Assembly: GCA_964016885.1 (NCBI GenBank)
Contig: OZ024743.1
Coordinates: 358,236,001-358,300,000 of the forward strand
Reading direction: 5' to 3'
DNA: 64,000 nt
From: Eledone cirrhosa
Lineage: Eukaryota
Position 1 is the stretch's first letter, and each line of letters opens with the position of its first letter. Below, in pieces: positions 22,819 through 63,800 of this stretch. The notes under the pieces were generated by a model, which was not told the origin of the DNA, did no database searches, and saw only the letters and a list, made by a program, of their open reading frames with translations. The translations under genes were made by a program, and so were the position numbers.

Positions 22819-22819
<1 letters not shown>
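17378..22819 (-). mobile_element. Tx1-group LINE copy B, near full length, multiply frameshifted (ORF1 about 22615-20946, ORF2 20902-17621)
   Basis: APE (GDWNG, RSYLDRFL), RT (NFRPLTLLN, DQSKAFDRV, RQGCPLS) and C-terminal fragments in shifting frames. Decayed knuckle in ORF1. AATAAA at the 3' end. (GATA)n on both sides. Confidence 0.93.

Positions 22820-22859
<40 letters not shown>
22819..22859. repeat. (GATA)n at the 5' junction of copy B
   Basis: Direct reading. Confidence 0.95.
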
Positions 22860-31885: not shown

Positions 31886-32277
31886 TCGGTGAATTAGCAG
31901 TATCGGTAGAGGGTTGGACGCCATGCTTTCTAGCATAGTTACGTCCCTTTACAGTCTCAGTTCAAATCCCGCCGAGGTTAACTTTGCCTTTCATCCTTAC
32001 GGCGTCGATAAAATAAAGTACCAGTAATGTACTGGGTAATTTGCTGGCCTTGTGCCTAAAGTAGAAACAATTATATTTATATCTAGCGGTGGATTGGCAG
32101 TATCGGTAGATGGTCGGACGCCATGCTTTGACGCATAGAGTTACGGCTCTTGCCATTCTGAGTTCAAATCCCTCTGAGGTTAACTTTGCCTTTCATCCTT
32201 ACGGGGTCGATAAAATAAAGTACCAGTAATGCACTGGATAATTGCTGGCCTTGTGCCTAAAAGTAGAAACAATTATA
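31886..32277 (+). mobile_element. Two tandem tRNA-derived SINE copies (about 31886-32075 and 32086-32277)
   Basis: Both match the family. ATTATATTTATATCTA follows each copy. Confidence 0.9.
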
Positions 32278-32356
32278 TTTATATCTACGCCAACACACAT
32301 TTACTTTGATAAACCTACATTTGTTTGTATTCGAGTGATCCCTTCCTTTATTTCTC

Positions 32357-38361: not shown

Positions 38362-38960
38362 GGGCGGTGGATTGGCAGTATCGGTGGAGGGTCGGACGCC
38401 ATGCTTTCCAGCATAGTTACGTCCATTTACGATCTGAGTTCAAATCCCGCCGAGGTTGACTTTGCCTTTCATCCTTACGGGGTCGATTAAATAAAGTACC
38501 AGTAATGCACTGGGTAATTGCTGGCCTTGTGCCTAAAGTAGAAACAATTATGAATGTAGTTATAAATATAATGTATTGTAGTATATTATAAAACATTATT
38601 ATAAATGAGTGGTCAGCATAGAGTTGCGGCCCTTTATGATCTGAGTTCAAATCCCGCCGTGGTTAACTTTGCCTTTCATCCTTATGGGGTCGATAAAATA
38701 AAGTACCAGTAATGTACTGGTTAATTGCTGGCCTTGTGCCAAAAGTAGAAACAATTATTATAAATGAGCGTGGATTGGCAGTATCGGTAGATGGTCGGAC
38801 GCCATGCTTTGACGCATAGAGTTACGGCCCTTGCCATTTTGAGTTCAAATCCCGCCGAGGTTAACTTTGCCTTTCAGCCTTACGGGGTCGATAAAATAAA
38901 GTACCAGTAATGCACTGGGTAATTGGTGGCCTTGTGCCAAAAAGTAAAAACAATTATTAT
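38362..38960 (+). mobile_element. Three tandem SINE copies (about 38362-38550, 38615-38760, 38768-38960)
   Basis: Family matches. TSD ATTATGAATGTAGTTATA flanks the first copy, and ATTATTATAAATGAG occurs three times around the second and third. Confidence 0.9.
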
Positions 38961-41760: not shown

Positions 41761-41889
41761 ATGTATGTATGTATGTATGTATGTATGTATGTATGTATGT
41801 ATGTATGTATGTATGTATGTATGCATGCATGTATGTATGTATGTATCTATGTATGTATGTATGTATCTATGTATGTATGTATATATATT

Positions 41890-42583
41890 TTGGAAAGCTC
41901 TATGTGTGACAGTATAGAAGCTCTTGTGCTTAAGCAGCGACTCCGTTGGAGTGGTCACCTTGCCAGGATGAAGGATTCTAGAATACCAAAACAACTCTTC
42001 TATGGAGAGTTGGTTAAAGGAAAACGACCGCCACATAAACCAAAAAAGAGGTATAAGGATTCCTTGAAGGCCTCTCTGAAAGACGCTAACATCTCTGCTG
42101 ATACATGGGAAAATATTGCTGCTGATCGTAATAAATGGAGAAAGACTGTATATGAGGGAAAAGTTGCCTTTGAGGCATCTCGAATCGCACACGAGAAAGT
42201 AAAGCGGGACGTGAGGAAGGGTATTGCTGTTGCACTTCCAGACGGCGAGGGTCCTCCTATGTTTCTGACATGCAGCGTCTGTGCGAGACTCTGCCTAAGC
42301 AAAGCTGGACTCGAAAGTCATCTTCGCAGTCATAAAGTAAGACCAGTGGTTGACTACCAGGCTGCTGTTGGAGATGCTACTCATCATGCTTGCCAAACAT
42401 GTGGTAGAGAATGTAAATCAGCAGGAGGACTCAAGCGACATGCAAAAGTACACGAACTCCAACCACAGCCGACTATTCCCAGTAAATGTTTTGGTTGCCG
42501 ACTCTGTGCAAGACATTTTAGATCATTGGCTGGGCTAAAAAGCCACATTCGATCGCAGCACTGTTAGTTGCTATCGTGTGTTT

Positions 42584-43637: not shown

Positions 43638-43750
43638 CTCTGCTATATCAAGCGTTAACCTAATATATACCTTCCATATACTGTATCGATTGTGTTGTTA
43701 TTTCTGTTTACGTTTTACATACATATATATATGTATGTATGTATAAATAA

Positions 43751-43778
43751 ATAGATAGATAGATATATAGATAGATAC
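43751..43778. repeat. Imperfect (GATA)n at the 3' junction of Tx1 copy C
   Basis: ATAGATAGATAGATATATAGATAGATAC. Confidence 0.9.
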
Positions 43779-43994
43779 ATTTCTTTATTTACCATAAAGG
43801 CATAAAAAGAAGGGACAAATACAAAGGGGGAGTTTACATATAATCGAGTAAAAAGGGTGTAACGTGAAAATAATCGAAAATAACCTCAAAAGGGAGGGGA
43901 CGTGATGGGGGTTGCACACACCCCCGAAAAAGTGTGCAATCCTTTGCCCGGGGAGCACATGGAGAAGGTGCTCCCCTCTCCTTTACTTCTTTAC

Positions 43995-46900
43995 CTACAG
44001 GATGGTATACAGAGAAGGCCCATTTACACGAGCCATTCTCGCCACTATCACCCACCTTTCATAAAACTGCCTGTGGCCAAGCACCTCTCTCTCCATTCTT
44101 ATCCTTCTTCCGAAGTGATATCGGAAGAAGTAGACCAGACTATGGCCAGAGAGGAAGTTGCCTGACCTCAGACCTTTCAATCGTGTCCACCAAACAACCT
44201 CTTTCAACATGGCTATTACGCACAGAAAAACCGCCTTTGCTTCCTTTGTGAAGAGGGGAGGCGGTTTGATTGTCATCACAGACTCGGCGGTCAATTTAAT
44301 CGGCGCCACCCGCGACAGCAGTTGTTCGGCGTAGCCCCACAGATCAGCCACGCCCGGACATTGCACCAATGCGTGCGCTACGGTTTCTTCGTGACGCACG
44401 CATCTAGGGCAAATCTTTTTTGAGGGATCCCTGCCCGGGCGCCCGTGTCTGTAGAGCCTCTCTCGAACGGGTAGAGCCCCCCGGTAGCACTGCCAGGCCA
44501 GTGACTTCTGGAAGTTGTCCATTGGTCCTGGGCCGAAAGTCCTACCGAACAGGCTGGCCAGTTCGTCTTCTTCCATGTCCAGCGACTCTCCAAGGGTGTC
44601 ATCGCCCCTGCTAGCCACCAGCCCTCTATAGAATGATGAGGTGGATTCTCCACCGATGGCCCGGCCCGCTTGCCAGAGAGCCCTGAGCGCCTGAGCACAC
44701 TCAGTGTGCCAGTCTCCCAGTTTTCCGGATCTTTGCTTGACCCAGGACTGTAGCTCGGTGAGTGAGACGAGTCTCGGAAAGGCTCGTTTCACGAACGGAG
44801 CCCACACCGGTTGACCAGTGAGGAATACCTGTAGGTGCCGTAGCCTTAATGCGTGCCTACGCATCATCAACCACGGCATCCCCAGCCCTCCTTTCGAAGG
44901 TTGTTGGCAGCAGATGGATCTTCTCACCATAGGAGGACGCTTCTTCCAAAGAAATTGGAAGAGCATGCGTTCCATGGTGGTGAGTGTTTCCTTAGGGCAA
45001 GGCACGACAGTCAGGCGGTAGTAAGTGACGGACGCTATGTAAATGTTCGCCACCTCCGCCCGGCCTTTTAGGGACAGCTTACACTTGGCCCATTTCTGGG
45101 TTAGTGCAAACACCTTGTTCGTAACCTCGTTCCAGTTCTTTTCCACCTGGAGGTCCGGTCCAAACCAGACCCCAAGCAACTTTACCGGGCCCTCCGTCCA
45201 GTGTCCGACGACACCATCGGGAGGCATAGGTCTGCCTCTCCACGTTCCGAGTTGCAGCCCGATGGATTTTTCCCGGTTCAGTTTCGCTCCTGACAACCTT
45301 TCGTACTCCTCCAGTAAGGTACCGATCGCCTCGATCTCCGAGTCGGTTGATACCATTACTGTTACGTCATCGGCGTAGGCCGACACCGCTTTGCTCAATC
45401 CTGGTTCCAGGGGGATACCCTGCAACAACTCCAACTTCCTCAGTAAAGGCTCGAGAGTCAATACGTACAGAAGGGAGGAGAGAGGGCACCCCTGTCGAAT
45501 GGATCGTGTGATTTCGAACGGCTTCGAAAGGTAGCCGTTCACCTTGATCCTAGAACAGATGTGGTTGCTATGTAGGGCAGTGATCCAGCCTCTGAAAACA
45601 GGACCGAACCCAGCCGCCGCTAGCACCGCATCCAGGTAACCATGGTCGACCCTATCGAAGGCCTTAGACTGATCCAAGTTGATCAGGGCCCCACCGAAGC
45701 CGGGTTTGTTGCCAACCCTCTCTATGATGTATCGCATGAGGTGGAGGTTATCGTGAATGGACCTGGATGGGATAGCACATGTCTGCGCATCTCCCACCAG
45801 GCCACCCACGACAAGCGCCAACCTCTTTGCTAACACCTTGGCCAAAATCTTTAACTCTGTGTTTAGCAGGGTTATGGGCCGAAAATTATTTATACTATCC
45901 CCCTTGTTCTCGTCCTTCCTCACCAGCGTGACTACGCCCTTGGCTACAGAACAAGGAATTCTCCCGTTCTGCTGCCAATTGCAGTAGACCGCTTCGAGGA
46001 GTTCGGAGAAGAAGACCGGCATTGCTAAATAAAGTTCGTAAGGTATACCATCGAGACCTGGAGATTTGCGTCTGCTGCATTGGCTCAGCGCATCTCCGAT
46101 CTCATCAGCCGAGATTGGTCCCTCGCAGGACTCCGCCTCTTTGTTCGAGAGACGCGGCAGGCCGTCGAGGTATGGACCGAAATCCACGCCCCGGCCCGGA
46201 CCCTCGCCTCCCCCGAACAATCGGGCAAAGTGCTTTTGAAAGGCCTCGCACATCTGCTTAGGCTCCCGGATCACTCGTCCATCTTCGTCTTGCAACGACC
46301 GGATGGTGGATCGATTTCCACTTTTAGCTTCTGTCACGCGGGCCCATCCAACGGCTTTGGCCCCCTCATTACCTAGAGCACGTATTTTACTTCGAATGAC
46401 GCAGCCTTCATGCTTTGCATCGAAAAACTGGTTCAAGGCCGTCCTCGATGCCAGCACTCTGGCCACATCTTCGCTCTTGATTGCCTCTTCTAATTTACCT
46501 GTTAATTCTTTCTCGTTTCTATTCCTATTGGCAGCTAACATCTTGCTATAACTTATTGATTCTGTTCTAATCTCTCTTTTGAGAGATGCCCACCATCGGT
46601 TGTTGACGATTGCACCCGTCAACCTCTCCTTAACTAATCTGCTAATCCGGTTTCTGTAAGTCTCTTTTGCCGGTAAAGACAAATTAAGTTTCCAGTAACC
46701 GGGACCCTGTCTATGTGTTTTCTCGAGATTGACCACGCAGGTCACTAATTTGTGATCCGTGTAGCCAACCGTGCGCATTTCTGGACAGCTTAATATGTCC
46801 CTATCCTTACTTCTAACTAAGAATCTATCTAAGTACGATCTAGATTGACCACTGTGGTTTCTCCAAGTCCAGGTAGGCACAGTTGGAAAATCTAGTCGAT

Positions 46901-47432
46901 ATCTATCGACCAAGTTAAAACGGTCGAGTAACCCCTTGAGGCTGTTACACCCCCCTCTATTAGGACATGCTCCTGCATAGTCCCAACGTGCATCTAGGAT
47001 GTCATTCCAATCCCCCGCTAGAAGCAGGGAACGCGACGTTCCCAGAAAAGTCTCCAAACGCTGGAAGAAGTCGGGCCGTTCAGCTCCGAAAGGGGAGTAG
47101 ACGGCGACCAGTCTCAAGGCCGCACTTTCACTACTGCCAACGTCTAGCACCAACAAACGACCCTCCGGGTCCGAGTGCACAACCTGTACGGCAAGACCCA
47201 GGTGTTTTTGCAGCAGCACGACAACCCCACCCCCACCTCCAGGTTGACAGAGAGATGCATGCACCTCAAAGTCATCGAAGGTGGGGGCCAGCTGCCGCAT
47301 GACGCTGATTCGAGTCTCACAGATAACCATTACATTTATACTACATGACCTGAGGTCATTTAGAAGCTTTGCTTGCTTCCAAGTTGAGCCCAGGCCACGT
47401 GCATTCAAACATCCTACTCTTAACACATCCAT
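43995..47432 (-). CDS. ORF2p: APE endonuclease, reverse transcriptase and C-terminal CCHC (zf-RVT-like), Tx1/L1 clade, 1145 aa
   Basis: APE: LNARGL, CETR, VYSP, GDWN, RSYLDRFL, TDH. Linker GPGYWKLN. RT: SPGLDG, NFRPITLLN, DQSKAFDRV, RQGCPLS, YADD, LLGV. GGLG. CPRCVRHEETVAHALVQC. Confidence 0.96.
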   Translation of the reverse strand: MDVLRVGCLNARGLGSTWKQAKLLNDLRSCSINVMVICETRISVMRQLAPTFDDFEVHASLCQPGGGGGVVVLLQKHLGLAVQVVHSDPEGRLLVLDVGSSESAALRLVAVYSPFGAERPDFFQRLETFLGTSRSLLLAGDWNDILDARWDYAGACPNRGGCNSLKGLLDRFNLVDRYRLDFPTVPTWTWRNHSGQSRSYLDRFLVRSKDRDILSCPEMRTVGYTDHKLVTCVVNLEKTHRQGPGYWKLNLSLPAKETYRNRISRLVKERLTGAIVNNRWWASLKREIRTESISYSKMLAANRNRNEKELTGKLEEAIKSEDVARVLASRTALNQFFDAKHEGCVIRSKIRALGNEGAKAVGWARVTEAKSGNRSTIRSLQDEDGRVIREPKQMCEAFQKHFARLFGGGEGPGRGVDFGPYLDGLPRLSNKEAESCEGPISADEIGDALSQCSRRKSPGLDGIPYELYLAMPVFFSELLEAVYCNWQQNGRIPCSVAKGVVTLVRKDENKGDSINNFRPITLLNTELKILAKVLAKRLALVVGGLVGDAQTCAIPSRSIHDNLHLMRYIIERVGNKPGFGGALINLDQSKAFDRVDHGYLDAVLAAAGFGPVFRGWITALHSNHICSRIKVNGYLSKPFEITRSIRQGCPLSSLLYVLTLEPLLRKLELLQGIPLEPGLSKAVSAYADDVTVMVSTDSEIEAIGTLLEEYERLSGAKLNREKSIGLQLGTWRGRPMPPDGVVGHWTEGPVKLLGVWFGPDLQVEKNWNEVTNKVFALTQKWAKCKLSLKGRAEVANIYIASVTYYRLTVVPCPKETLTTMERMLFQFLWKKRPPMVRRSICCQQPSKGGLGMPWLMMRRHALRLRHLQVFLTGQPVWAPFVKRAFPRLVSLTELQSWVKQRSGKLGDWHTECAQALRALWQAGRAIGGESTSSFYRGLVASRGDDTLGESLDMEEDELASLFGRTFGPGPMDNFQKSLAWQCYRGALPVRERLYRHGRPGRDPSKKICPRCVRHEETVAHALVQCPGVADLWGYAEQLLSRVAPIKLTAESVMTIKPPPLFTKEAKAVFLCVIAMLKEVVWWTRLKGLRSGNFLSGHSLVYFFRYHFGRRIRMEREVLGHRQFYERWVIVARMARVNGPSLYTIL

Positions 47433-47465
47433 GTGGGCGGCAGAGCCAAAGGAGAGTGTAGAGAC

Positions 47466-49343
47466 CTACCTTTCCGCTTCCCGGGGTTCGGGTTGCACGA
47501 CTTCCATGGGGTCGGGGGTGTTGGGTGAAGGGGTGTCTTGTGGTGGTGTGGGGTCGTCGGTGTGTGGTGGGGTTGGGGTGTTTGGAGTTGTGTTGGGGAG
47601 GGGAAGGGGAGGGGGAAAGCTTTTTAGTAGGACGCGGTTTATGGGTTTGACAGAGGGTGGTCCTACGTCCTCCTTAAAATCCTTTTTTAGTTTTTGGTAG
47701 AGGTTCATTGGGATTTTTATTAGTTTTAAATGTGGGTGGTTTTCTGATGAAACAAAGTTTACACCTTCGGTTTGTACCGAAGGATTATTGTATATGAGTT
47801 CATTTAATTTATTATTGTTTCTGTTGATGTAAGTATAGTGTAATGTCTTTTTTTCCGATGGTGTGAGTGTTTCGAAGAGGGGAGGGGCAGGTTTGGTTTT
47901 GTTTGTTGCTGGAGGGGTGTTTTCTGTTTTGTTAGATTGTGTTGCGATTTGGGTGGGGGTTGTTTGTCCTTGTGTGTTTTGCACATGTTTTCTTTTTTTC
48001 CTTTTAATCTGTCTGAAGGACTCCGTTTCTTCCTCCGAATTCGTTGGGTTATCTTCAGTGTTGGAGGGAAGAGGTATGTTTGCTGGTAATGTTTCCGTGT
48101 TGGTTTTCTTTGTGGGGGAGATGGATGTCACTATGTTAGACTGTGTTGTGTGTTGTGTCTGCGGTGGTTGTGTTGTTTTATTGAGTGAGAGGTTGGGTGG
48201 GCCTGTATTTTGTTTTGGGGTAATGTGTTGTGACTGTTTGTGTTGTGGTGGTGTTGTGGTGTTACTGAGGGACGGGTTGGGTGGGACTGAGTTTTGTTGT
48301 TTGTTTATCTGTTGTGGTGGTGGTGGTGGAGCTGGTGTTGGTAGCAGGGTTTTCTTTTTGTTGAGTTGGGGACAAGCGGCCTTCAGGTGCCCTCTGCCTG
48401 CACAGATATGGCAGGACGGCCTTCTCCCCTCCACGCTAATGTTTATATACCCGTGGTCCTCTAATAGGATTCTGTCGGGTATTTGGGCGATGCGTTCAGG
48501 CTTCATTTGTACTACCAGCTCTATACCTGTTCCACTGAACGCATTGCCTGTGGTTTTCCCAATGGAAATCACGTTGTCATTCACTGGATCGATGAAGCCA
48601 GCTATGAGCCAGCAGTAGTCCACATCTGGCATCATTGCATCCAGCCATATGCGTTGAGTTTTTTTCCCCATATAAGATGGATAAAAGGTGAAATTTTTCG
48701 AACGAATCGGTGACAAAGCACATTTTTTTGCCGCCGATTCGTTCTTCATGATAATTGCTAGGCTTCCATACAGTCTGTCTTTTCTTATGAAAGTTGTTTC
48801 ATTCAGTACTTCTGCGAGTACTGTTTTGATATCTGCTTGAGAAGGCTGTTCAGGTTTTTTTGTACTGTTGTTGATGGTCCGAAACTTGACCGTTCGGCTT
48901 TCAATGTCTTTCGTGAATTCTTGAGGCATTTTTACCAATAAAATACCATTCTCACCTTCACTTATGTATTGTTTTGCGTCCGTGATCCTTCGTACCACAT
49001 CTGAAATGTTTTCCGCTATATAAGTCAAAGATTTCTTTGTTTTCTGTGCAAATGAAATCTTGTCGTCTGCTTTGTTTTCTGATATTATGTTATTTTCAAC
49101 TGTTATTTTTTTGTTTGTTGTGTCTTTGTTTGTGTTATTAGTATTGTCATGCAATTTTTCAAATTTTTTTTTTTCGTTGTTTTCGTCATTTAATTTTTTC
49201 TCCGCAGATTCGTCCGTTTTTATTTTCATTTTTCCTTCCTTCTCTATGACGTTAGTTGGGAAGGAAGGGAGGACTAAAGCGTGCGAGCTTACAACTCTTA
49301 CCGCTGTCCCCCCACCACTATTTTCGTTCGCTGCGTTTAACAT
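47466..49343 (-). CDS. ORF1p: gag-like nucleic-acid chaperone with one CCHC zinc knuckle and a Pro/Thr/Gln-rich disordered region, 625 aa
   Basis: CHICAGRGHLKAAC (CX2CX4HX4C). Homologous frames occur in copies B, D and F. Confidence 0.9.
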   Translation of the reverse strand: MLNAANENSGGGTAVRVVSSHALVLPSFPTNVIEKEGKMKIKTDESAEKKLNDENNEKKKFEKLHDNTNNTNKDTTNKKITVENNIISENKADDKISFAQKTKKSLTYIAENISDVVRRITDAKQYISEGENGILLVKMPQEFTKDIESRTVKFRTINNSTKKPEQPSQADIKTVLAEVLNETTFIRKDRLYGSLAIIMKNESAAKKCALSPIRSKNFTFYPSYMGKKTQRIWLDAMMPDVDYCWLIAGFIDPVNDNVISIGKTTGNAFSGTGIELVVQMKPERIAQIPDRILLEDHGYINISVEGRRPSCHICAGRGHLKAACPQLNKKKTLLPTPAPPPPPQQINKQQNSVPPNPSLSNTTTPPQHKQSQHITPKQNTGPPNLSLNKTTQPPQTQHTTQSNIVTSISPTKKTNTETLPANIPLPSNTEDNPTNSEEETESFRQIKRKKRKHVQNTQGQTTPTQIATQSNKTENTPPATNKTKPAPPLFETLTPSEKKTLHYTYINRNNNKLNELIYNNPSVQTEGVNFVSSENHPHLKLIKIPMNLYQKLKKDFKEDVGPPSVKPINRVLLKSFPPPLPLPNTTPNTPTPPHTDDPTPPQDTPSPNTPDPMEVVQPEPREAER

Positions 49344-49577
49344 TTCTGTTAGACGATTGAAATTTTTTACACAAAATTTTTTTTTAAAACAGGTTTTTCA
49401 CCTCTAGGAGGGGTAAAGATGAGCTGACCCACCGCCTGACAGTTCAGACGGAGGGTCAAGCTACACAATTGTATCAAAATTAAGTTTGAACTCACAAAAT
49501 TTCCTCAATAAATTTGAACAAAACTTCTGTGCGAAGTGAATGACATCCACACTGTAGAACAGACGACAGCTAGATTT

Positions 49578-49627
<50 letters not shown>
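49578..49627. repeat. (GATA)n spacer between copies C and D
   Basis: Direct reading. Confidence 0.97.
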
Positions 49628-49648
<21 letters not shown>

Positions 49649-52600
49649 TTCTTTATTTGCCACAAGGGCACACAAGAAAAGGGGACAATACAAAGACATG
49701 CCGGGGAATTTACATACAGTCGTGTAAAAAATATAAAACAAACAATTATAACAATCGAAATCCCCAATAGAGGGGGGGGCACAAATGGGTTGTCTAATAC
49801 CCCGTAGATAGAACAACCCTCAACTTCAGGAGCGTGTTGTGCAAGTGCACCTTTCTTCCTTTTGTTCTCTTCTTTAACCTACAGGCTTATAAACAGAGAC
49901 GGCCCAATCACTCGGGCCATTTTCGCTTCATTCACCCACCTTTCAGTAAATTTACTGGGGTGCAGTGCCTCTCTCTCCACTCTGATTCCCCTTCTAAAGT
50001 GATACTTAAAGAAGGGAATCAATTGTTGTCCGGAGAGAAAGGCATCTGTCCTCAGTCCTCTCAATCTCGTCCACCATATAACCTCTTTCGCCATAGCCAC
50101 TGTGCAGAAGAAAACCGCCCCTCTTTCGTTTTTCAAAGAGGCTGGTGGTTTGATCCTTACTATGGACTCGGCAGTCAACTGGATTTGTCCCATACGCGAC
50201 AGCAGTTGTTCTGCATAGTTCCACAGGTCGGTTACGCCCGGGCAGTGTACAATTGCCTGCAGGACGGTTTCAATGTCCTGCGCGCATCTTGGACACTTCC
50301 TCTTGGAAGGATCCCTGCCGGGGCGTCCGTGCCTGTAGATCTTGTCACGAACTGGAAGAGCTCCTCGGTAGCACTGCCGGGCCAGGGACCTCTGGAAGTT
50401 GTCCATAGGTCCCGGGCGGAAAGTCCTACCAAACAGACTGGTGAGCTCATCGTCTTCGACGCCCAGAGTCTCTCCGAGCACGTCGTCGCCCTTGTAACGT
50501 ACAATCCCTCTATAGAATGTCGAAATGAAGACTCCACTGATTGCTGTGCCCGCTTGCCAGAGGACTGTGAGCGCCTGAGCGCATTCAATGTGCCAGGCGC
50601 CCATCGTTTTCGGTCTTTTCTTGACCCAGGACTGCAGCTCCGTCAGCGAGATGAGCTGCTGAAAGTCTGTCTCACAAACGGTGCCCACACCGGTTGGGGG
50701 TCGGTGAGGAATACCTGGAGATGCCGCAACCTCAGCGCATGTTTGCGCATCGCATCATCAACCACGGCATTCCCAGCCCTCCGTTGGAAGGGTGCTGACA
50801 GCAGACGGATCTCCTCACCAGCGGAGTCTGCTTCTTCCACATAAACTGGAAGAGCATGCGTTCCATCTTGGCGAGCTGTTCACGGGGACAAGACACGACA
50901 GTCAAGCAGTAGTAGATGACGAACGCTATGAATGTGTTCGCCACCTCCGCTCGACCTTTCAAGGAGAGTTTGCAATCAGCCCAATTCTGGGTGAGTGCAA
51001 ACACCTTCGCCGTGACCTCGTTCCAGTTCTTGTCCACCTGGAGGTCTGGACCAAACCAGACCCAGAGCAATTTCCCCGGTCCTTCCGTCCAGCGTCCAAC
51101 GACACTGAAGGAAGACATGGGTTTGCCTCTCCATGTGCCGAGTTGCAAATCGACAAATTTGGCCGGGTTTAGTTTTGCTCCCGTCAGCGTTTCGTATTCT
51201 TTCAGTAAGTTGCCGATCACCCCGATTTCCGAGGTGCTCGACACCATTACCGTCACGTCGTCGGCATAAGCTGACGCCGCTTTGCGCAGTCCCGATTTTA
51301 GAGGGATGCCCTGCAACAGCTCCAATTTCCGCAGTAGTAGCTCTAGAGTCAATACATACAGAATTGAGGAGAGAGGGCATCCCTGTCGAACGGAAGGCGT
51401 GATTGCGAACGGCTCCGATAGGTAGCCGTTCACCTTGACCCTTGAGCAGATGCTGGTGTGCATCGCCTCGATCCAGCCTCTGAAAACAGGACCGAAAAAG
51501 TCGCCTTGAGAACCGCTTCCAAGTATCGATGGTCGACCCTATCGAATGCCTTAGACTGATCCAAATTGATCAGAGCCCCACTGAAGCCGGGTTTACTACC
51601 CACCCTCTCTATGATTTATCGCATGAGGTGGAGGTTGTCGTGTATGGACCTGGTCGGGATTGCACACGTTTGCGCTTTCCCTACCAGGTTCTCGACGACA
51701 AGCGCCAACCTCGTCGCTAGCACCTTGGCCAAAATATTTAACTCTGTGTGGAGCAGAGTTATGGGCCTGAAATTGTGAATTTCGTCCCCCTTGTTTTTGT
51801 CTTTCCTGATCAGCGTTACTACGCCCTTGCCTGCAGAACTGGGAATTCTCTCGTTCTGCTGCCAATTGCAGTAGACGGCTTCAAGGATGCCAGAGAACAA
51901 GTCCGGCATGCCTATGTAAAACTCATAGGGTAGACCATCGAGACCGGGTGATTTGTGTTTACCGCAGCGGCCCAGAGTGTCCCATATCTCAGTGTCCGTG
52001 ATCGGTCTTTCGCATAACTCGGCGTCCGTGTTCGAGAGACGCGGCAGGCCGTCGAGGTATGAACTAAAGTCCATTGCCCGTTTAGGTCACTGTCGTTCTG
52101 CTCAAACAGTCGCGCAAAGTGCTGCTGAAAAGCCGCGCACATTTGCTTGGGGTCAAGTAGCACGCGTCCGTTTAGGTCTTTCAAAGACCGAATCATAGAC
52201 TTGTTGCCACTTTTTGCCTCTGCCACTCGGGCCCAGCTGACAGCTTTCGCTCCTTCGTTTCCTAGAGCACATGTTTTGCTTCTGACTACGCAACCTTCGT
52301 GTTTCGCATCGAAGAACTGGTCCAGTGCCGTTCTCGACGCTAACACTCTAGCCGCGTTGCCACTTCTAAGTGCCTCCTCTACCTTGGCTACTAGTTCTCT
52401 TTCTATTTTGTTTTTCTCTAAGGTTAACTCTCTGCTAAACCCTATCGATTCTACTCTAATTGCTTTCTTGAGAGAGTACCACCATCTATTGTTGACAATG
52501 GCTCTCGTTAACTGTTGCTTGACTAGTCTACTTATCTGTTCACCGTAAGCTTTACGTGCCGGCAACGATACGCTCAGCTTCCAGTATCCGGGTCCCTGTC

Positions 52601-54160
52601 TATGTGTTCTATCACGATTGACTATGCAGACGACTAATTTGTGATCTGAATAGGCAACCATGTGCATTCGTGGACAACTTAACATCTCCTTGTCCCTTTC
52701 TCTAATGAAGAACCTATCTAAATACGATCTAGATGTCCCGCTGCGGTTTGCCCACATCCACTGGTGCAGTCGGGAAATCCAGTCATACCTATCGGCCAGT
52801 TGGAATTGGCCGATTAAAGTTTTGAGGCTGTTGCACCCCCACCCCCTCTACTGGGACATGCTCCCACATAGCCCCATCGTGCATCTAGGATACCATTCCA
52901 GTCCCCCACTATAAGTAAGGCGCGAGACGTTCCCAAAAAAGACTCTAGACGCAGTCTGCCCGGTCGGGGCATAAACGGCCACTAGTCTGAAGGCTCCACC
53001 TCCAATACTGTTCACGTCTAGGACTACCAGTCTACCCTCCGGGTCCAAGTGTACTTGCTGTACTTCGACGTCCAGGTTCTTCCGAAACATGACAGCCACT
53101 CCCCCTCCACCTCCTGGCTGACAGAGAGATGCGTAGATCTCAAAGTCGTCGAAGATTGGCGTTAGTTGCTGCCTGTTGTGGATCCTGGGCATCCCGAGGC
53201 CACGCACATTCACGCTTCCAACTCGTAAACTAGCCATGTTGGTGAAGAAGAGTTGGAGAAAAAGGACGAAAAGGTGCACTTACCTTTTCGTTTCCTGGAG
53301 ATCGGGTTGTTCAATCTCCATTTGGGTGCTGGAGGAGGTGTTGGGTGGGGTGGGGAAACATTTTAACAGGACGCGGTTGATGGGTTTCTGGCAGGGGTTG
53401 CCCACGTCCTGCGAAAATTTATTTTTCAGGTCACTATAGGTCTCCATAGAAACCCTTATAAGTTTAAGGTGTGGAAACGATTCTGCCTTGACGAAAGTTT
53501 TGCCCTCCGTCTCTTGGGGTTTGGGGAGATGACCTCCACCGAAATATTTATTTTGTTGTTGTCGTCGATGACGACTTTTTCGGGTATTTTGGAGATTCCC
53601 TTTGGCCTCATCTGCATCAGAATCTCCAAATCAGTACCCGCCCACCTTTGTCTCATAGACTTCCGTATCGAAAAAATAGCATCAGTCTCTGGCTCCACGA
53701 AGCCAGCCAAGATCCACCAGATGTTAATGTTTGGTGGTATATTTTTTATTTTTATTTTTTGTGTCCTTTTTCCCATGTACGTAGGGGAAAAGGTGAATTC
53801 TTTTGACACCATTGGTGTCACAGAATGTTTTTGGGCGAGTGTCTCGCTTTTATACAGTACGGAAATACTTCCGTACTGTCTTCCTCGTTGAAGAAAGTCA
53901 ATATTTTCTAAAATCTTCTTCAAGGTGGCTTCTATGTCTCCTTGACTCACAAATACTGGCTTTCTCGTTGTGTTTGAGACAGTCCTGAAGGTCACTGTCC
54001 TTTGAACCGTCTCTTCTTTTATTTCGAGGCGTGAGTTGATTCTAAACCCACCCTTGTCTTCGAAAGTTACAAATTTTCTCCCTTGCTGGAGCATACCCCT
54101 TGCATTGGAGATGTCAAGATTTATAAAATCTTGTTTTTTGTTCACTGTTTCAGCGAAAGA

Positions 54161-54212
<52 letters not shown>

Positions 54213-54238
54213 GCTGTTGCTGCTGCTGCTGCTGCTGC

Positions 54239-54319
<81 letters not shown>

Positions 54320-54855
54320 CAGCCTCGGTGTTAGAAATCGCAATTTCTTGACGAGGTGAAATTTTATCTCTAGGTGTATCTATAGAGTTGGTGTTGTTGG
54401 ATTTTTCATGTGTATGTATATTAATAGGTTTAATTCCTCTGTTTTCCTGTGTATGCTGTGTGTTATTTTTCTCCGCTTCGACGGTAGAAATTTTAAAATG
54501 TTCAATTGGCAATATTTTTTTTTCTTTGTTGACAGTCGTATCCATGACGACGTCCATAGTGGCAGAAGTAGATATAACGTTAATATCTGCCTTTCTACCT
54601 CTCTTCCCTCTGTCGACGTTCTCCGGCGTTCTTTCCGAGTTATTCATGTTTTATAGTCGGCAAAATTTGATTTTTTTTTAACAATTTTTAAATTAAATTT
54701 TCGCCCCTAAAGGGGCGAAAAATGGGATTACCACCCAGCTGACAATTCAGCTTGGGGGTTAATCTACAAAATGATATGTTTTTTCAAACAATTAGTTCAG
54801 TTTTTTGTATAGAAATTTACAAAAAAGCTTACCAGCGATGTTCCACGCGTCAGGC
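49628..54855 (-). mobile_element. Tx1-group LINE copy D, both ends present, frameshifted; ORF1 (54647-53280) lacks the knuckle by deletion and has an (AAC)n expansion; ORF2 53237-49879
   Basis: ORF fragments 49879-50688, 50732-51463, 51616-52074, 51912-52757, 52848-53279, 53456-54343 and 54150-54647 are all homologous to copy C. Confidence 0.93.
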
Positions 54856-54928: not shown

Positions 54929-55163
54929 TGTTGCTTTATTAGCCACAGGGCCAAATACAAAGGGGGAAGTTTACATACAATAAAACGTGTAAAATGTTAT
55001 CACAAATGCAATTTAAAAAATTAGTCGATTTTCCCCAATAGGGGGAGACAGTTCATATGGGTAACACATACCCCCGAAAAAATGTGCAACCCTCATCTCC
55101 AGGAGTACGAAGAGTTTGTACTCCTTTCCTCTCCTCCTCCTTTTCCTCAACCTACAGGCTGAT
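54929..55163 (-). mobile_element. Tx1-group LINE copy E, extremely 5'-truncated (3' UTR plus the last few ORF2 codons)
   Basis: 3' UTR homology. CTACAGGCTGATATAGA (reverse of ...YISL*) runs directly into (GATA)n at about 55165-55177. Confidence 0.88.
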
Positions 55164-55177
55164 ATAGATAGATAGAT

Positions 55178-58100
55178 TTCTATTTATTGCCACTAGGGCG
55201 CAAAAGAAGGGAACAAATACAAGGGGGAGTTTACACAAAAAGGCGAGTAAAGAAAACAAATAACAAATATAAAATTAACAATAAAGACCTCAATAGGGAA
55301 AAAAGTGTGCAACCCCTTCTCCTCAGGAGCACAGAGAGGGGGTGCTCCCTCGTTCCTTCCTCTTTTCCACCTACAGGCTGATGTAGAGAGAAGGCCCATT
55401 CACACGGGCCATTCTCGCCACTTTCACCCACCTTTCATAAAAACGACTGGGGTTGAGCATCTCTCTCTCCATCCTGATCCTTCTTCCGAAATGATATCGG
55501 AAGAAACGGATCAGTTGTTGGCCAGAGAGAAAGGTACCTGACCTGAGTCCTTTCTGACGCGTCCACCATACAACCTCTTTCACCATGGCTATTACGCACA
55601 GAAACACCGCCTCTCCTTCATTTCTTGTCAACCGGATCGGTCCCACCCGTGATAGCAGTCGTTCGGCATAGCCCCACAGATCGGCTACGCCCGAGCAGTG
55701 TACCAATGCGTGTACAACGGTTTCCTCGTCGCACACGCCGCATCTGGGACAGATCTTTTTGGCGGAGTCCCTACTCGGGCGCCCGTGTCTGTAGAGCTTT
55801 TCTCGAACGGGTAGAGCCCCTCGGTAGCACTGCCAGGCCAGGGACTTCTGGAAGTTGTCCATAGGTCCCGGGCTGAATGTCCTACCGAACAGGCTGGCCA
55901 GTTCGTCTTCCTCCATGTCTAGGGCTTCTCCGAGGGCGTCGTCGCACCTGCTGCGTACCAGCCCTCTATAGAATGTCGCGGTGGAGTCTCCACTGAAAAC
56001 CGGGTCTTCCTGCCAGAAGGCCGTGGGCGCCTGGGCACACTCAGTGTGCCAGGCGCCCAATTTTCTCGGTCTTTGCTTGACCTAGGATTGCAGCTCGGTG
56101 AGTGAGACGAGTCTGGAAAAGGTTCGTCTCACAAACGGGGCCCACACCGGTTGACCGGTGAGGAATACGTGGAGGTGTCGTAGCCTTAATGCGTGTTTAC
56201 GCATCATTAGCCACGGCATCCCCAGCCCTCCTTTCGAAGGGTGTTGACAGCAGATGGATCTCCTCACCAAAGGAGCCCGCTTCTTCCAAAGGAATTGGAA
56301 GAGTGCGCGCTCCATCTTGGCGAGGGTTTCCCTTGGGCAAGGCACGACGGTCAGGCGGCAGTAGATGACGGACGCTATATAGGTGTTCGCCACCTCCGCC
56401 CGACCTTTCAGGGATAGTTTGCAACTGGACCACTTCTGGGTCAGTGCAAACACCCTGTTCGTAACCTCACCCCAGTTCTTCTCCACCTGGAGGTCTGGTC
56501 CGAACCAGACCCCGAGCAACTTCACCGAGCCCTCCGTCCAGCGTCCGACGACGCCATCGGAGGGCATCGGTTTGCCCCTCTACGTGCCGAGTTGCAAACC
56601 GATCGACTTGTCCCGGTTCAGCTTAGCCCCTGTGAACCTTTCGTACTCCTCCAGTAAGGTGCCGATCGCCCCGATTTCGGAGGCCGTCGACACCATTACT
56701 GTCACGTCATCGGCGTAGGCCGACACCGCTTTCCGCAATCCCGGTTCCAAAGGGATGCCCTGCAACAACTCCAACTTCCGTAGTAGTGGCTCGAGAGTCA
56801 ATACATACAGAATGGAGGAGAGAGGGCACCCTTGTCGGATGGACCGCGCGATTTCGAACGGCTCAGAGAGGTAGCCGTTCACCTTGACTCTAGAGCAGAT
56901 GCGGCTGCTGTGCATAGCAGTGATCCAGCCCCTGAAAACAGGTCTGAAGCCTGCCGCCGCTAGCACCGCATCCAGGTAACCATGGTCGACCCTATCGAAC
57001 GCCTTAGATTGATCCAAGTTGATCAGGGCCCCACCAAAGCCGGGTTCGTTCCCAACCCTCTCTATGATGAATCGCATGAGGTGGAGGTTGTCGTGGATGG
57101 ACCTGGACGGGATAGCACATGTCTGCGCATCTCCCACCAGGTTGCCCACGACAAACGCCAACTTCTTTGCTAGCACCTTGGCCAAAATATGTAACTCTGT
57201 ATTTAGCAGAGTTATGGGCCTGAAGTTACTTATTTCGTCTCCCTTGTTCTCGTCCTTCCTCACTAGCGTGACTACGCCCTTGGTCACAGAACAGGGAATT
57301 CTCCCGTTCTGTTGCCTGTTGCAGTAGACGGCCTCGAGGAGATCGGGGAACAAGTCCGGCATAGCTAGATATAGTTCGTATGGAAGACCATCGAGACCCG
57401 GGGATTTGCGTTTGCCGCATTGGCTCAGCACGTCCTCTATCTCAGCGGCTGAAATCGGCTCCTCGCAGGACTTCGCCTCCTCGTCCGAAAGACACGGCAA
57501 GCCGTCGAGGTATGGACCGAAGTCCACTCCCCCAACCGGCTCCCCGCCCCTTCCGAACAATCGGGCAAAGTGCCTTTGAAAGGCCTCACACACCTGCTTA
57601 GGTTCAAGGATCGTCCGTCCATCCTGGTCTCGCAAAGACTGGATGGTGGATTTAATTCCACTCTTGGCTTCTGTCACGCGGGCCCAGCTAACAGCTTTGG
57701 TCCCTTCGTTCCCTATAGCACGTATTTTACTTCGAACAACGCAGCCTTCGTGCTTCGCGTCGAAAAACTGGCTCAAAGCCGTTCTCGACGCTAGCACTCT
57801 GGCCACGTCGCCGCTTCTAATTGCCTCTTCTACTCTATCTATCAGCTCCCTTTCCTTCCTATTCCTATCCGCAGCTAGAACCTTACTAAATTCTATCGAG
57901 ACTAATCTAATCTCTCTCTTTAGAGATACCCACCACCTGATGTTGACGATCGCTCCAGTCAACCGCTCCTTAACTAACGTACTAATCCGGTCTCTGTAAG
58001 CTTTACTTGCCGGTAAGGACAAGTTCAGCTTCCAGTAACCGGGACCCTGTCTATGCATTCTATCAAGGTTGACCATGCAGGTCACCAACTTGTGGTCTGA

Positions 58101-60812
58101 ATAGCCAACCATGAACATTTCTGGACAACTTAAAAAGTCCCTGTCCTTATTTCTAACTAAGAACCTATCTAGGTACGATCTAGATTGACCGCTACGATTT
58201 GTCCAAGACCAGGTTGGCACCGTCGGAAAATCTAGTCGAAATCTATCGGCCAGGTCAAATCGGCCGAGTAACCCCTTGAGGCTTTTACACCCCTCTATAT
58301 CGGTACATGCCACTGCATAGTCCCAACGTGCATCAAGGATACCATTCCAGTCCCCCACTAAAAGCAGGGAACGGGACGTCCCTAGAAAAGACTCCAGACG
58401 TTGGAAGAAGTCGGACCGCTCTGTCCCAAAAGGGGCATATGCGGCTACCAGCCTAAAGGCTCCACCTTCACCACTGCCAAGATCCAACACCACCAGTCGA
58501 CCCCCTGGGTCCAAGTGAACTATCTGTGTGGCGAGACCCAGATGTTTTTGCAGCAGAACGACAACCCCACCCCCACCTCCGGGCTGACAGAGAGATGCGT
58601 GCATCTCAAAGTCATCAAAGGTCGGGGCTAGCTGTCGCACGCTGCTGATCCGGGCCTCGCAGATAACCATCACATTTATAGATCGTGACCTGAGGTCATT
58701 TAGAAGCATTGCTTGCTTCCAAGGTGAGCCCAGGCCACGCGCATTTAGACACCCTACTCTCAGCACAGCCATGTTGGTGGTAAGGAGAAAAGGCACTTAC
58801 CTCTCTGCGTCCCGGGGAGCGGGCCGCTCAATTTCCATGAGGGTTGGGGATGGGTTGTTGGGTGGGGTGGTGGTTTGTGGAAATGTAGGGGCATCAGTGT
58901 GTTGTGGAGTTGGGTGTTTGTAGTTGAGTGGGTGTCTGAGTAGGGGGTGGGGACATTTTTTAGGAGGACGCGGTTGATTGGCTTGATGCAGGGGGGGGGG
59001 GGCACGTCGTCAGTGAAATTTATTTTCAACGTTTTGTATAAGTTCATTGGGACTTTAATCATTTGTAAATGAGGTAGTCCCACAGCAGTTAGAAAGTTAG
59101 GCCCTTCAGTTTGGACCGAAGGGTTTGACGAAATTGTGTTCATTAGTTCTTTGTTGTTTGTGTTCATGAATGTATATTGTAAAGTCTTTTTTTGCGTTGC
59201 AGTTAGTGTTGTGTGACGGGGAGGGGTGGTTTGTATATAGTTTGTTTTCTCTTGGGGAGGGTTTATGTTAATAAGTGTGTCTGTGGTGCGCCTCCTCTTC
59301 TTTCTTTTTACTATTTGGAAGGGATCTTTTTCGTCTTGCGACGAAAGGGGTTCGTCTTCCTTGTTGGGTGGGAGGGGTATATTTTCTAGTAGTGTTTGCG
59401 GTGTGTGTGTTTTTGTATTTGTTTTGGGTGGGGAGGGGTTGGGTGGGACAGTGTTCTGTGTTGTTTTTTCACGTGTTTGTTGTTGTTGTTGTGGTGGTGG
59501 TGTTGTTGGTTTTGTTGTTGTTGTTGTGGTTGTTTTTGTTGTTGTTGTTGGGGTGGTGGTGGTGTTGGTTGTTTTTGATGTTGTTGTTGGGGTGTTGGTA
59601 GCAATGGTTTTTTCGGTGTGAGCTGGGGACAGGCAGCCCTCAGGTGACCTCTGTTGCCACAGAGGTAACAGGAGGGACGCCTACCCTCCACAATAATGTT
59701 GAGGTGGGTACGGTCATCCAGCATGACGCGTTCAGGGATTTGGGCGATACGTTCTGGCCTTATTTGGGTCAGAACTTCAATGCTCGTTCCACTGAATGCG
59801 TCGCCGGATGCCTTCCCTATTGATATAAGGTTGTCCTCGTCCAAGTTGAGGAAACCGGTTGGTAACCACCAGTAGTTTATGTTTGGGGTGATAGTGGTTA
59901 TCCTAATTCTTTGGGGTTTTTTACCCATGTAGGTTGGAAAAAAGGTGTAATGTGTGGAACGAATTGGCGACACAGAGTATTTTTTCGCCGCCAATTCGTC
60001 TTTCATCAATATGGATAAACTCCCATAGAGTTTATCCTTTTGTATGAAAATTGTCTTTCATAGCCTCTTTCAGGACCAACTGAATTTCAGCTTGAGATGG
60101 TTGCGCTGGTTTTCTTGTTTTGTTGGCAATTGTACGGAATACAACAGTTCGTAATTCCGTCTGTTTTTTTAGTTCTGGGGGCGAATTGATGGGAAAAGAT
60201 CCATTTTCGCCAAAAGATACATATTTTTTTGCTTTTTCAAGCATTTCTTTTGCATTTGTTATATCCTCAAGCACATAGGTGACTGATATTTTAGCAGTCT
60301 GTGCAAAAGATATTTTGTTTTCGTTGTTGGTGTTTGAGTTGTTCTGTTTCTCGTAGTTTGAGTTATTTTCATTTTTGTTGTTGTTGTCTTTCTCATTTGG
60401 TGCGTTGGTTTTGTCATTGTTAGTGTTTTCGTTGTAATTAATTGGGTTTGCACCCGTATTTACTTGTTTGCCCGGCATATCGCCTTTTACAAAGTCTTTT
60501 AAAACGTTGACGCGGGAAAGCAAAACGCTTTGTAACGCTTGCTTCTTTCTCACTTCTTCCTTAGTGAACGTGGTGTTTTCGTTCACACGTGCTACAGACA
60601 TGGCGTCAATTTTTTACCATGTGAGTCAGCAAAAATTTTTTGGAGTAGTTTTTACCCCCAAAAGGGGTAAAAATACGATGACCACCCGTCTACAGACCTA
60701 GCCGGCTGGTTAAAAGACACGAAGACAACACAATAAAGAGACAAAGACTTACTGTCAATAGGTAAAAATTCAAAAAGGCAGGAGCCGATGTTGTACGCGT
60801 CTATACTATGCG
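55178..60812 (-). mobile_element. Tx1-group LINE copy F, full length, lightly damaged (ORF1 60601-58797 frameshifted; ORF2 58772-55371 with two TGG>TAG stops and a short deletion)
   Basis: ORFs 56580-58796, 56082-56567 and 55371-56060 are in one frame. Knuckle CYLCGNRGHLRAAC. (GATA)n on both sides. Confidence 0.95.
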
Positions 60813-60833
60813 AGATAGATAGATAGATAGATA
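60813..60833. repeat. (GATA)n spacer between copies F and G
   Basis: Direct reading. Confidence 0.95.
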
Positions 60834-63800
60834 TCTTTCTTTATTTGCCACAGGGGCGTACAAAAATGGGACATTACAAAACGTGACGGCGGGGGTTTTA
60901 CATAAAATATTTAACAATGATAAATAACAATAAACTATATAAAAATAAAACAATTGAAATCCCCATAGGGGGGGGGGGGTAACGCTACTGCGGAGTTGTT
61001 TTACATCCCGTGGATAGAACAACCCTCAACACCAGGAACACGTTTTGTAGGTGTTCCCGTCTTCCCTCTGTTTATCTTCCTCAACCTACAGGTTTATATA
61101 CAGAGAAGGCCCATTCACCCGGGCCATTTTCGCCACATTCACCCACCGTTCAGCGAATTTACTGGGGTATAGCACCTCTCTCTCCACTCTCACCTCCCTT
61201 CTGAAGTGGTACTTAAAGAAGGGGATGAGTTGGTGCTTGCCCTCAGTCCTTTTAACCTCGTCCACCATATTACCTCTTTCGCCATAGCCACCAGAAAACC
61301 GCCTCTCCTTCATCCTTAAATGAAGGCGGCGGGTGATCCTCACGATGGACTCAGCTGACAACTGGATGCGTCCTACACGTGACAGTAGCTGTTCGACATA
61401 ATTCCACAGGTCGGTCACCCCTGAGCACTGAACAATTGCATGCAGAACGGTTTCGATGTCCTGGAAGTTATCCATAGGCGCTGAACGGAAAGTCCTCCCG
61501 AACAGACTGGTCAGTTCGTCTTCCTCGATGCCTAGAGTTTCCCCGAGAACATCGTCGCACTTATCCTCCACTAATCCCCTATAGAATGTCGAAGTGGAGT
61601 CTCCGCTGATTGCCGTTTCCGCTTGGTAGAGGGCTGTGAGCGCCTGAAAGCACTCGAGGTGCCAGGCGCCCATTTTCGGTCTTCGCTTGACCCAGGACTG
61701 CAGCTCTGTTAGTGAGACGAGTTGTGGAAGAGCTCGTCTCACAAACGACAGCCACACCGGTTCGCCGGTCAGGAACACCTGGAGATGGCGTAGCCTCAGC
61801 GCGTGTTTGCGCATCATCAGCCACGGCATGCCCAGCCCTCCGTTAGAAGGGTGTTGATAGCAGATGGATCTCCTCACCAATGGAGCCTGTTTCTTCCAAA
61901 GGAACTTGAAGAGTAGGCGTTCCATTTTGGTGAGGTATTCTCGAGGACAAGGCACGACTGTCAAGCGGTAATAGATGACGGACGCTATGTAGGTGTTCGC
62001 CACCTCCGCTCGACCTTTCAAGGAGAGTTTGCACTCAGTCCACTTCTGGGTGAGTGCAAACACCTTCGCCGTGACCTCGTTCCAGTTCTTGTCCACCTGG
62101 AGGTCTGGACCAAACCAGACCCAGAGCAATTTCCCCGGTCCTTCCGTCCAGCGTCCAGCGTCCAACGACACTGAAGGAAGGCATGGGTTTGCTTCTCCAT
62201 GTGCCGAGTTGCAAACCGACAGACTTGTTTGGGTTTAGTCTTTCTCCTGTAAACCTTTCGTATTCCTGTAATAGGTTGCCGATTACCCCGATTTCCGAGG
62301 CTTTCGACACCATTGTGGTTATGTCGTTGGCATAGGCCGACGCTGCTTTCCGCAGTCCTTGTTCGATCGGGATCTCCTGCAACAGCTCCAACTTCCGCAG
62401 TAATGGCTCGAGAGTCAGTACATACAGAATGGAGGAGAGAGGGCACCCCTGACGGATGGAACGCATGATTTGGAATGGCTCCGATAGGTAGCCATTCACC
62501 TTAACTGCCGAGCAGATGCTGGTATGCATAGCAGCGATCCAGCCTCTGAAGACAGGACCGAAGCCGGCCGCCTTGAGAACCGCTTCCAAGTATTGATGGC
62601 CGACCCTATCAAATGCTTTAGACTGATCTAAATTGATCAGAGCCCCACCGAAGCCAGGTTTACACCCTACCCTCTCTATGATGTATCGCATGAGGTGGAG
62701 GTTGTCGTGTATGGACCTGGTCAGGATTGCACACGTTTGCGCTTCCCCTACCAGATTCTCGAGGACAAGCGCCTCACTGCTAACACCTTGGCCAAAATAT
62801 TTAACTCTGTGTTGAGCAGAGTTATGGGCCTGAAATTGCTTATCTCATCCCCCTTGTTCTCATGTTTCCTTAACAGCGTAACTACGCCTCTGCCTACAGA
62901 ACTGGGAATTCTCTCGTTCTGCTGCCAGTTGCAGTAGACCGCTTCGAGGACGCCAGAAAACAAGTCTGGCATAACTATGTAAAACTCATAGGGTGATTTG
63001 CGTTTCCCACAGCTGTCCGCATCCGTGTTCGAAAGACGTGGTACGCCGTCGAGGTAGGAGCTGAAGCCCATCACCTCCCTTGACGTACCGCTTTGCCCAA
63101 ACAGTTGTGCAAAATGCTGCTGGAAGGCCGTGCACATCTGCTTGGATTCAAGTAGAATGCGTCCATCTTTGTCTTGCAAGGACCGAATTGTGGATTTGTT
63201 GCCACTTTTCACCTCTGCCACTCGGGCCCAGCTAACAGATTTGGCTCCCTCGTTTCTTAGAGCACGTGTTTTACTTCTGACAATACAACCTTCGTGTTTC
63301 ACGTTGAAGAACTGGTCTAGTGCCGTTCTCGCCGCTAGCACGTCAGCTGTACTGCCATTCCTAAGGGCCTCTTCTACTTTAGCTACCAGTTCCTTTTCGG
63401 TTTTGTGTTTTTCTAAAGCTACTTCCTTGCTAAATGCTATCGATTCTATTCTAATTGCTCACTTGAGAGATCTCCACCACCTGTTGTTGACGATCGCCCC
63501 CGTCAACTGGCATTTAACTAAGGTGCTAATCCGTTTACTGTAGGCCTTACGCGCCGGAAGCGACATGTTTAGCTTCCAGTATCCGGGTCCCTTCTGTGTG
63601 TTCTATCAAGGTTGACTACGCAGGTGACTAATTTGTGGTCTGAATAGGCAACCATGTGCATTTGTGGACAGCTTAATGTTTCCTTATCTTTCTGTCTAAT
63701 TAAAAATCTATCTAAATACGATCTAGAAGACCCAGTGCGGTTGCTCAACGTCCACAGTGGTACACTTGGGAAGTCTAGTCGATATCTATCAGCCAGTTGG

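Follow-up and report, generated by a model that had tools for sequence, protein, structure and literature searches.

An intact L1/Tx1-type LINE inserted in a (GATA)n microsatellite, with candidate splice signals bracketing its second open reading frame

The window analysed here comprises 64,000 nucleotides of contig OZ024743.1 (assembly GCA_964016885.1, positions 358,236,001 to 358,300,000), and the element under study, element B, occupies positions 43779-49577 on its minus strand. Element B is a full-length long interspersed nuclear element (LINE) of the L1/Tx1 type. Its open reading frame 1 (ORF1; 49343-47466; all features of B lie on the minus strand, flanking tracts aside) is open from ATG to stop and encodes 625 residues, with an RNA-binding-like region, one CCHC knuckle (48372-48413, residues 311-324) and a low-complexity tail of P, T, Q and N. 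After a pyrimidine-rich spacer of 33 nucleotides (nt; 47433-47465), ORF2 (47432-43995) runs likewise from ATG to stop over 1145 residues and contains an APE endonuclease domain (about 46713-47432), a reverse transcriptase (RT) domain delimited by Pfam at 45168-45899, with YADD at 45366-45377, and a C-terminal CCHC motif (44358-44411, residues 1008-1025). The corresponding Pfam matches are Exo_endo_phos, RVT_1 and zf-RVT. The first-pass annotation of this locus had claimed two open frames with ATG starts together with the expected APE and RT residues, and these are all found in B: N10, E39, Y112, D141-x-N143, D202 and D226-H227 in the endonuclease and Y686-A-D-D689 in the RT. ORF2 is full length (1148-1161 residues in relatives) and holds zero deletions private to B. 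With zero lesions and no measurable decay since insertion, B is an intact, potentially competent copy, as that annotation had held, and it is the sole intact one among the seven copies in the window. ORF1 and ORF2 share a reading frame in B; stop-codon readthrough from one into the other was considered and set aside, because the length of the spacer varies from copy to copy.

The presence of two ORFs, the second with an N-terminal APE domain, an RT and a C-terminal CCHC motif, fits the L1 group of APE-type non-LTR (long terminal repeat) elements, as do the lack of LTRs, the 5'-truncated copies D' and A0 described below and the aligned, fixed 3' ends. The best solved relative of ORF2 is LINE-1 ORF2p (sequence E 1e-50, fold E 3e-40); the AlphaFold model, of modest confidence (predicted local distance difference test 60.8, predicted template modelling score 0.42), served the fold search only. 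Full-length ORF1 of B gave zero Pfam matches, and a homolog search returned zero sequences at E 0.001 among 7994 candidates. A zf-CCHC motif is seen in all four aligned ORF1s, falling below the cut-off in B (E 0.1), and the look-alikes of ORF1 in the atlas are CCHC and ZCCHC3-type RNA-binding proteins (0.89-0.92). ORF1 proteins of the Tx1 clade carry RNA-binding domains and a CCHC knuckle, and ORF1 of B fits this type in possessing the knuckle motif. In an RT tree of 14 rows, B groups with unnamed relatives and with an element associated with U1 small nuclear RNA (snRNA) at locus L039, apart from plant L1 proteins. Membership of B in Tx1 is likely, judging from the ORF1 type and from the U1-associated element in the next clade of a tree that holds no named animal Tx1.

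The seven copies in the window (A0, A, B, C, D', D and E) are all on the minus strand, and five of them (B, C, D', D and E) are arranged head to tail. Copies A (17377-22818) and C (49649-54855) are full length and decayed; copy D (55177-60812) is full length, with two stops and a 39-nt deletion in ORF2; copy E (60833-64000) is decayed and extends past the end of the window. Two copies are short: A0 (16867-17335), an RT fragment that has lost its 3' part, and D' (54929-55160), a 5'-truncated copy of 232 nt. Stops and frameshifting indels in ORF2 number 2 and 11 in A, 1 and 11 in C (one at the alignment edge), 2 and 0 in D, and 1 and 6 in E, and the ORF1 of copies A, C and D is disrupted.

The ends of these copies indicate that the element inserts specifically in (GATA)n, where (GATA)n, AGAT and (ATCT)n denote the same type of tract read by strand or register. 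Twelve of 13 copy ends adjoin an AGAT tract, in a single orientation, and 11 of the 13 lie at most 4 nt from it; the only end far from a tract is the lost 3' end of A0. Viewed from the tracts, seven of the eight AGAT tracts are at a copy end, against none of the 103 tracts of other units, although AGAT tracts make up just 285 of 38,047 non-element bases (0.75%). A distance rule of 12 nt counts six of these tracts; the seventh, 3' of B, was added, since B ends against a degenerate tract whose perfect core lies 17 nt away. Because 12 of 13 ends are at such a tract and none of the 103 others carries one, (GATA)n-specific insertion, already proposed in the first-pass annotation, is well supported. 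Where target preference is defined as more than 20% of flanks being of one type (PMC4494074; articles given by PMC number are cited here from the portions covered), the figure is 12 of 13 ends in this one window. The targets of Kibi and Koshi type go unused, with no copy at the three AG tracts or the five AAG tracts. As to B itself, the tract shared with C (49578-49648), which is the 5' flank of B and the 3' flank of C, is a perfect (GATA)17.8, whereas the 3' tract (43742-43778) is a degenerate, not a perfect, (GATA)n followed by non-element sequence.

It could be argued that the element itself adds the (ATCT)n tracts as 3' tails, its insertion not being sequence-specific. In this regard, all six retained 3' junctions pass through a T into (ATCT)n without poly(A), and the inner tracts of the array serve as 3' and 5' flank at once. 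Yet the six visible 5' ends all lie on a tract as well, including those of the truncated copies A0 and D', which share 3 and 5 nt of microhomology with it, and copy A has a tract on each side, the 5' one (22819-22858) being followed by non-element DNA with no element behind it. The tracts are therefore not merely tails. An empty tract also exists at 2038-2057, and the tail explanation is very unlikely, even if an element-made tail may lengthen tracts that already exist. The empty tract, a (TCTA)5, has the opposite orientation and lies inside CT repeats.

Both untranslated regions (UTRs) of B retain structure. The 5' UTR (49344-49577), about 18 nt longer than the 5' ends of the siblings and presumed to house an internal promoter, folds much better than its shuffles (z -5.15, 0/200) and contains two hairpins (49398-49461) common to A, C and D. 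Copies A, B, C and D each hold a donor-like GTRAG motif in the 5' UTR (22756, 49495, 54832 and 60752, minus strand), with no conserved acceptor ahead of ORF1. The 3' UTR (43779-43994), which has an AATAAA at 43784-43789 and no poly(A) tail, forms five stems (43950-43976, 43910-43942 and three more) that covary over six copies, with 96% of cells paired and two-sided changes at 5 pairs, a figure that leans in favour of the structure because the latter was derived from the same alignment. Folded alone, the 3' UTR of B is unremarkable (z -1.72, 13/200 shuffles). The earlier statement that both UTR structures are kept is thus correct for the 5' hairpins and the five 3' stems, with the reservation that in B the second hairpin is in a shifted register and one pair of stem 2 is broken. 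A candidate pseudoknot, in which the G-rich loop of stem 2 would pair with a run of C further downstream, competes with the covarying stem 3 and was set aside. Rfam models gave no match to 43500-64000 even at an E cut-off of 1, which places no known ribozyme in the UTRs.

The age of B and its relation to its neighbours were addressed with a codon model on five copies, leaving out A0 and D' as too short and masking gap-near codons and the first 70 codons of A and C. On the branch leading to B, the ratio of nonsynonymous to synonymous change (omega) is 0.195 and the synonymous divergence (dS) 0.31-0.32, and an omega of 1 is rejected (twice the log-likelihood difference, 143); ORF2 of B is under purifying selection, and omega fitted as a single value for the active phase is 0.208. 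The estimate of neutral divergence since insertion is lowest in B, at 0 with a 95% limit of about 1.9%; D and E each come to 0.8%, A to 1.8% and C to 2.9%, the value of C alone being significantly different from zero. The zero lesions in 5.3 kb of B bound it at 1.3-1.6% from stops alone, or about 0.3% at the frameshift rate of the siblings. With the rate quoted for octopus in PMC13282606 (0.0036 per million years), the insertion would be younger than about 1-4.5 million years. In ORF2, B is 74.0-84.7% identical to its neighbours, and much less so in ORF1 and the 5' UTR. The combination of purifying selection, no measurable decay and a branch dS of 0.31 marks B as a recent arrival from a separate lineage that has long been under selection; it did not give rise to its neighbours. 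There is no trace of recent gene conversion involving B and a sibling, no window of 300 columns exceeding 91% identity; a shift of the informative-site pattern in the RT region, on an approximate tree, points to possible old mosaicism.

These results bear on the term master copy, applied to B by the first-pass annotation and implying a source element that produces new copies now. B has the properties expected of one, being full length, with both ORFs open, UTR structures retained and decay not measurable; any recent daughter, however, would be equally intact. Moreover, the search within the window gave no near-identical copy, none exceeding 84.7% identity in ORF2, the terminal branch of B has a dS of 0.31, and the 5' UTRs differ among copies. 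Young intact copies would also be common if the host is an octopus, as the repeat landscape and a SINE-like repeat of the window make probable, given the 421 recent near-full-length L1-Tx1 insertions in 13 families of O. vulgaris (PMC13282606; its portions covered say nothing on the insertion targets of L1-Tx1). B parents no copy in the window, so the term finds no support there, and we consider it unlikely that B is a true source element.

Five copies lying head to tail would also be expected from tandem duplication or from a single concatemer-forming event of reverse transcription, or B might be maintained by the host. Nevertheless, ORF2 differs by 13-26% among the copies, their 5' UTRs and lesion loads differ, and B has the same omega as the inner branches, which is what selection during transposition would produce. 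Origins of this kind are extremely improbable, and several subfamilies inserted independently.

Taken together, these findings lead us to propose, with a probability of roughly 0.8, that B is a recently inserted, intact L1/Tx1-type LINE copy that entered (GATA)n by target-primed reverse transcription. Following L1/Tx1 biology, transcription would start from the 5' UTR, and the ORF1 and ORF2 proteins (ORF1p and ORF2p) would bind the element RNA through the structured 3' UTR to form a ribonucleoprotein. The APE domain would then nick the tract on its AGAT strand, probably between T and A, a position that fits the passage of the 3' junctions through T into (ATCT)n without poly(A); for comparison, L1 nicks TTTTT/AA (PMC12503042). 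An endonuclease hairpin has been implicated in target choice (PMC1950540), and its loop is similar in all five long copies. From the nick, the RT would copy the RNA, and the 5' end would be joined to the tract by short microhomology. Tract would be left on each side of the insertion, and later subfamilies could stack head to tail because the target survives on both sides of each insertion. Several observations weigh against this proposal: the evidence for targeting comes from two independent clusters in one window; a target-site duplication cannot be read, since the insertion lies inside a microsatellite; B alone carries substitutions at I463, I629 and T803, where distant homologs are invariant; and the A-C mismatch in stem 2 of the 3' UTR (43940) is likewise found in B alone.

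In addition to these features, candidate splice signals, which the first-pass annotation had overlooked, stand at both ends of ORF2 (the slash marks the splice site). A candidate 5' donor, AG/GTAGGT (47464-47471; putative intron start 47469), overlaps the ORF1 stop, and a candidate 3' acceptor, CCTGTAG/GT (43993-44001; putative intron end 43995), overlaps the ORF2 stop after a pyrimidine run. The predicted splice would remove 47469-43995, that is, exactly ORF2 and the spacer. The ORF1 stop is embedded in an AGGTARGT donor sequence in 4/4 copies; when scored by its match to the U1 5' end taken from L039, one of the related loci, this donor comes first among the GT sites of A (285), B (298), C (269) and D (298). 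The ORF2 stop lies inside an invariant CCTGTAG/GT in 6/6 copies, and by a crude ad hoc score over 236-370 AG sites this acceptor comes second in two copies, each time tied for the top, and 11th, third and sixth in three others. In B and A a stop codon would directly follow the predicted junction and leave ORF1p unaltered, and since the junction falls at the stop codon, the spliced RNA should escape nonsense-mediated decay. Judging from sequence only, spliced RNA would then yield ORF1p alone, and unspliced RNA would supply ORF2p and the template for insertion.

Related elements show partly similar signals. A scan of genome contigs gave 45 related loci, 39 of which belong to one tandem-array family in assembly CAXXMW01; the others are L034, L039, L040, L042, L044 and L045, L034 and L039 among them being scored for splice sites. 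The array family has 40% ORF2 identity to B, the same type of ORF1 and head-to-tail arrays, and its units represent a single lineage because their mutual identity is 86-100%. A perfect donor is located 1-2 bases past the ORF1 stop at 54/54 distinct ORF2 starts, and a second donor, followed by an acceptor in the 3' UTR, is present at 48/48 distinct ORF2 ends; this putative 3' UTR intron measures 237-263 nt, and its acceptor ends in TGTAG in most units. The arrangement differs from that of B in the extra donor past the ORF2 stop and in units that abut without a microsatellite. L034 has a top-ranked donor and an acceptor in the 3' UTR without a donor at the ORF1 end.

We give about an even chance to alternative splicing from the ORF1-stop donor to the ORF2-stop acceptor as a means of removing ORF2. 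Slightly below that, and accordingly tentative, stands the wider idea that in a lineage of target-specific LINEs the entire ORF2 is a retained spliceosomal intron, with an ORF1-only mRNA setting the ORF1p:ORF2p ratio in a copia-like manner. The motifs could instead have no part in removing ORF2 and be by-products of conserved terminal codons, or serve U1 in another role, with the donor binding U1 against premature polyadenylation or aiding termination-reinitiation on ORF2; this, too, we place just under even odds. Indeed, protein sequence is conserved over the final 13 codons of ORF1 and at the end of ORF2, a constraint that accounts for part of both motifs, and the 5' UTRs also hold donor-like motifs without a conserved acceptor. 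Such by-products, in contrast, would not predict that the non-coding GT past both stops is invariant, nor that the ORF2 stop is the acceptor-compatible TAG in 6/6 copies while the ORF1 stop varies between TAG and TAA, both donor-compatible. The chance that six free acceptor positions are all kept is about 0.6% (a post hoc figure, with invariance rates of 0.376 and 0.473), and in the family of 40% identity the donor falls outside the ORF1 codons.

Further points tell against splicing of ORF2. The spliced frame stops at once in two of six copies only, C, D, D' and E gaining 28-58 residues; no clear branch point was found by eye in the 60 nt 5' of the acceptor; and the window as a whole shows no enrichment of the donor motif, with 7 occurrences against 4.2 expected. 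Among the relatives, a donor at the ORF1 end is missing from L034 (40% identity), and neither signal is present in L039 (27%). Neither pattern search nor unit mapping found an ORF2-less spliced retrocopy in the window or the related loci, a search biased against success because the loci were retrieved by ORF2.

Of these findings, the possible intron spanning ORF2 most deserves further work. It is understood only in part how one LINE RNA gives rise to a large excess of ORF1 protein over ORF2 protein, and splicing is generally regarded as detrimental to LINEs; a conserved intron spanning ORF2, if true, would be a different solution to the ORF1p:ORF2p ratio. In cell assays of the usual kind, the putative splice sites could also cause the loss of ORF2 or of a reporter. 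The intact (GATA)n endonuclease would add a natural specificity for studying APE target choice. Its value as a site-specific insertion tool, put forward in the first-pass annotation, is modest: its activity is that of a candidate, and (GATA)n is a dispersed, multi-copy target, which makes B repeat-specific at most and not a single-locus tool. The target was also presumed to be neutral; in this regard, the (GATA)n tract matches the site of GATA factors.

Among other microsatellite-specific non-LTR elements, Waldo, Mino and Dong belong to the R1 and R4 clades, unlike B. Their targets differ as well, being ACAY, AC and TAA, respectively (PMC3812793). Within the Tx1 clade, elements specific for (TC)n, (TTC)n, (TTCC)n and (TTTC)n have been described (PMC4494074; PMC3812793). 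The Kibi, Koshi and crocodilian Tx1 families, compared by description only, resemble B as APE-type two-ORF LINEs in pyrimidine-rich microsatellites, but the portions covered do not list (ATCT)n/(GATA)n among their targets (PMC4494074; PMC3812793). Tx1L, Keno and other Tx1 elements aimed at snRNA genes or transposons share a target-specific APE with B, which differs in its microsatellite target, the lack of a poly(A) tail and an endonuclease hairpin of L1 length. Human LINE-1, the best sequence and fold match, has the same APE and RT catalytic residues, whereas B has a CCHC knuckle in ORF1, a strict repeat target, no poly(A) and a C-terminal ORF2 part that is unalignable by sequence. Splicing of human L1 has been described as inhibitory and a dead end (PMC5860796). 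The nearest working analogy to the putative ORF1-only mRNA is the spliced Gag RNA of Ty1/copia elements: in Arabidopsis EVD, a spliced subgenomic RNA for the structural protein brings about its excess over the enzyme (PMC5580714). EVD, however, is an LTR element in which splicing is coupled to premature termination; in B the whole ORF2 would be one putative intron. L1-Tx1 is mentioned without targets in the portions covered of PMC8967140 and PMC9004415. Our literature search, which covered few subscription papers, Repbase reports and bioRxiv supplements, found no GATA-specific LINE, although the family may be deposited, and, at the level of titles and listings, none with ORF2 as an intron. What may be new here is the (GATA)n target and the splice signals bracketing ORF2, microsatellite-specific Tx1 elements as such being already known.

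The related loci offered observations of their own. The apparent 3' UTR intron is kept in genomic copies of both families (L006:9478-9726 and L034:5497-5640). CAXXMW01 is entered as a bacterial metagenome-assembled genome, and yet its contigs 2-18 (L001-L038, L041 and L043) carry long head-to-tail arrays of an intact eukaryotic LINE, one family accounting for no fewer than 54 distinct ORF2 starts and a second being present at L034; these arrays are evidently eukaryotic contamination. At L035 (6362-11842), two consecutive units have the same internal deletion, with ORF1 and the start of ORF2 missing, suggesting an amplified non-autonomous unit. The element at L039, with 27% ORF2 identity to B and a short poly(A) tail, is flanked by a complete U1 snRNA gene on one side and by a 5'-clipped copy of U1 on the other, and about 160 nt are repeated on either side (3036-3199 and 9961-10160); by its sequence context, it is a U1-targeting element.

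Elsewhere in the window, a Tc1/mariner-like transposase fragment lies at 10205-10951 on the plus strand (DDE_3, E 7e-4, below the cut-off). The RT C-terminal fragment of another LINE, with DUF6451, is found at 24275-25306 (plus strand) and is, we presume, RTE-like. A LINE-like C-terminal fragment with three terminal C2H2 zinc fingers occupies 41761-42567 (plus strand). Finally, a SINE-like (short interspersed nuclear element) repeat of about 190-200 nt gives 15 matches of 73-100% identity, partly in tandem, at 31887-32287, 38365-38957 and ten other places.

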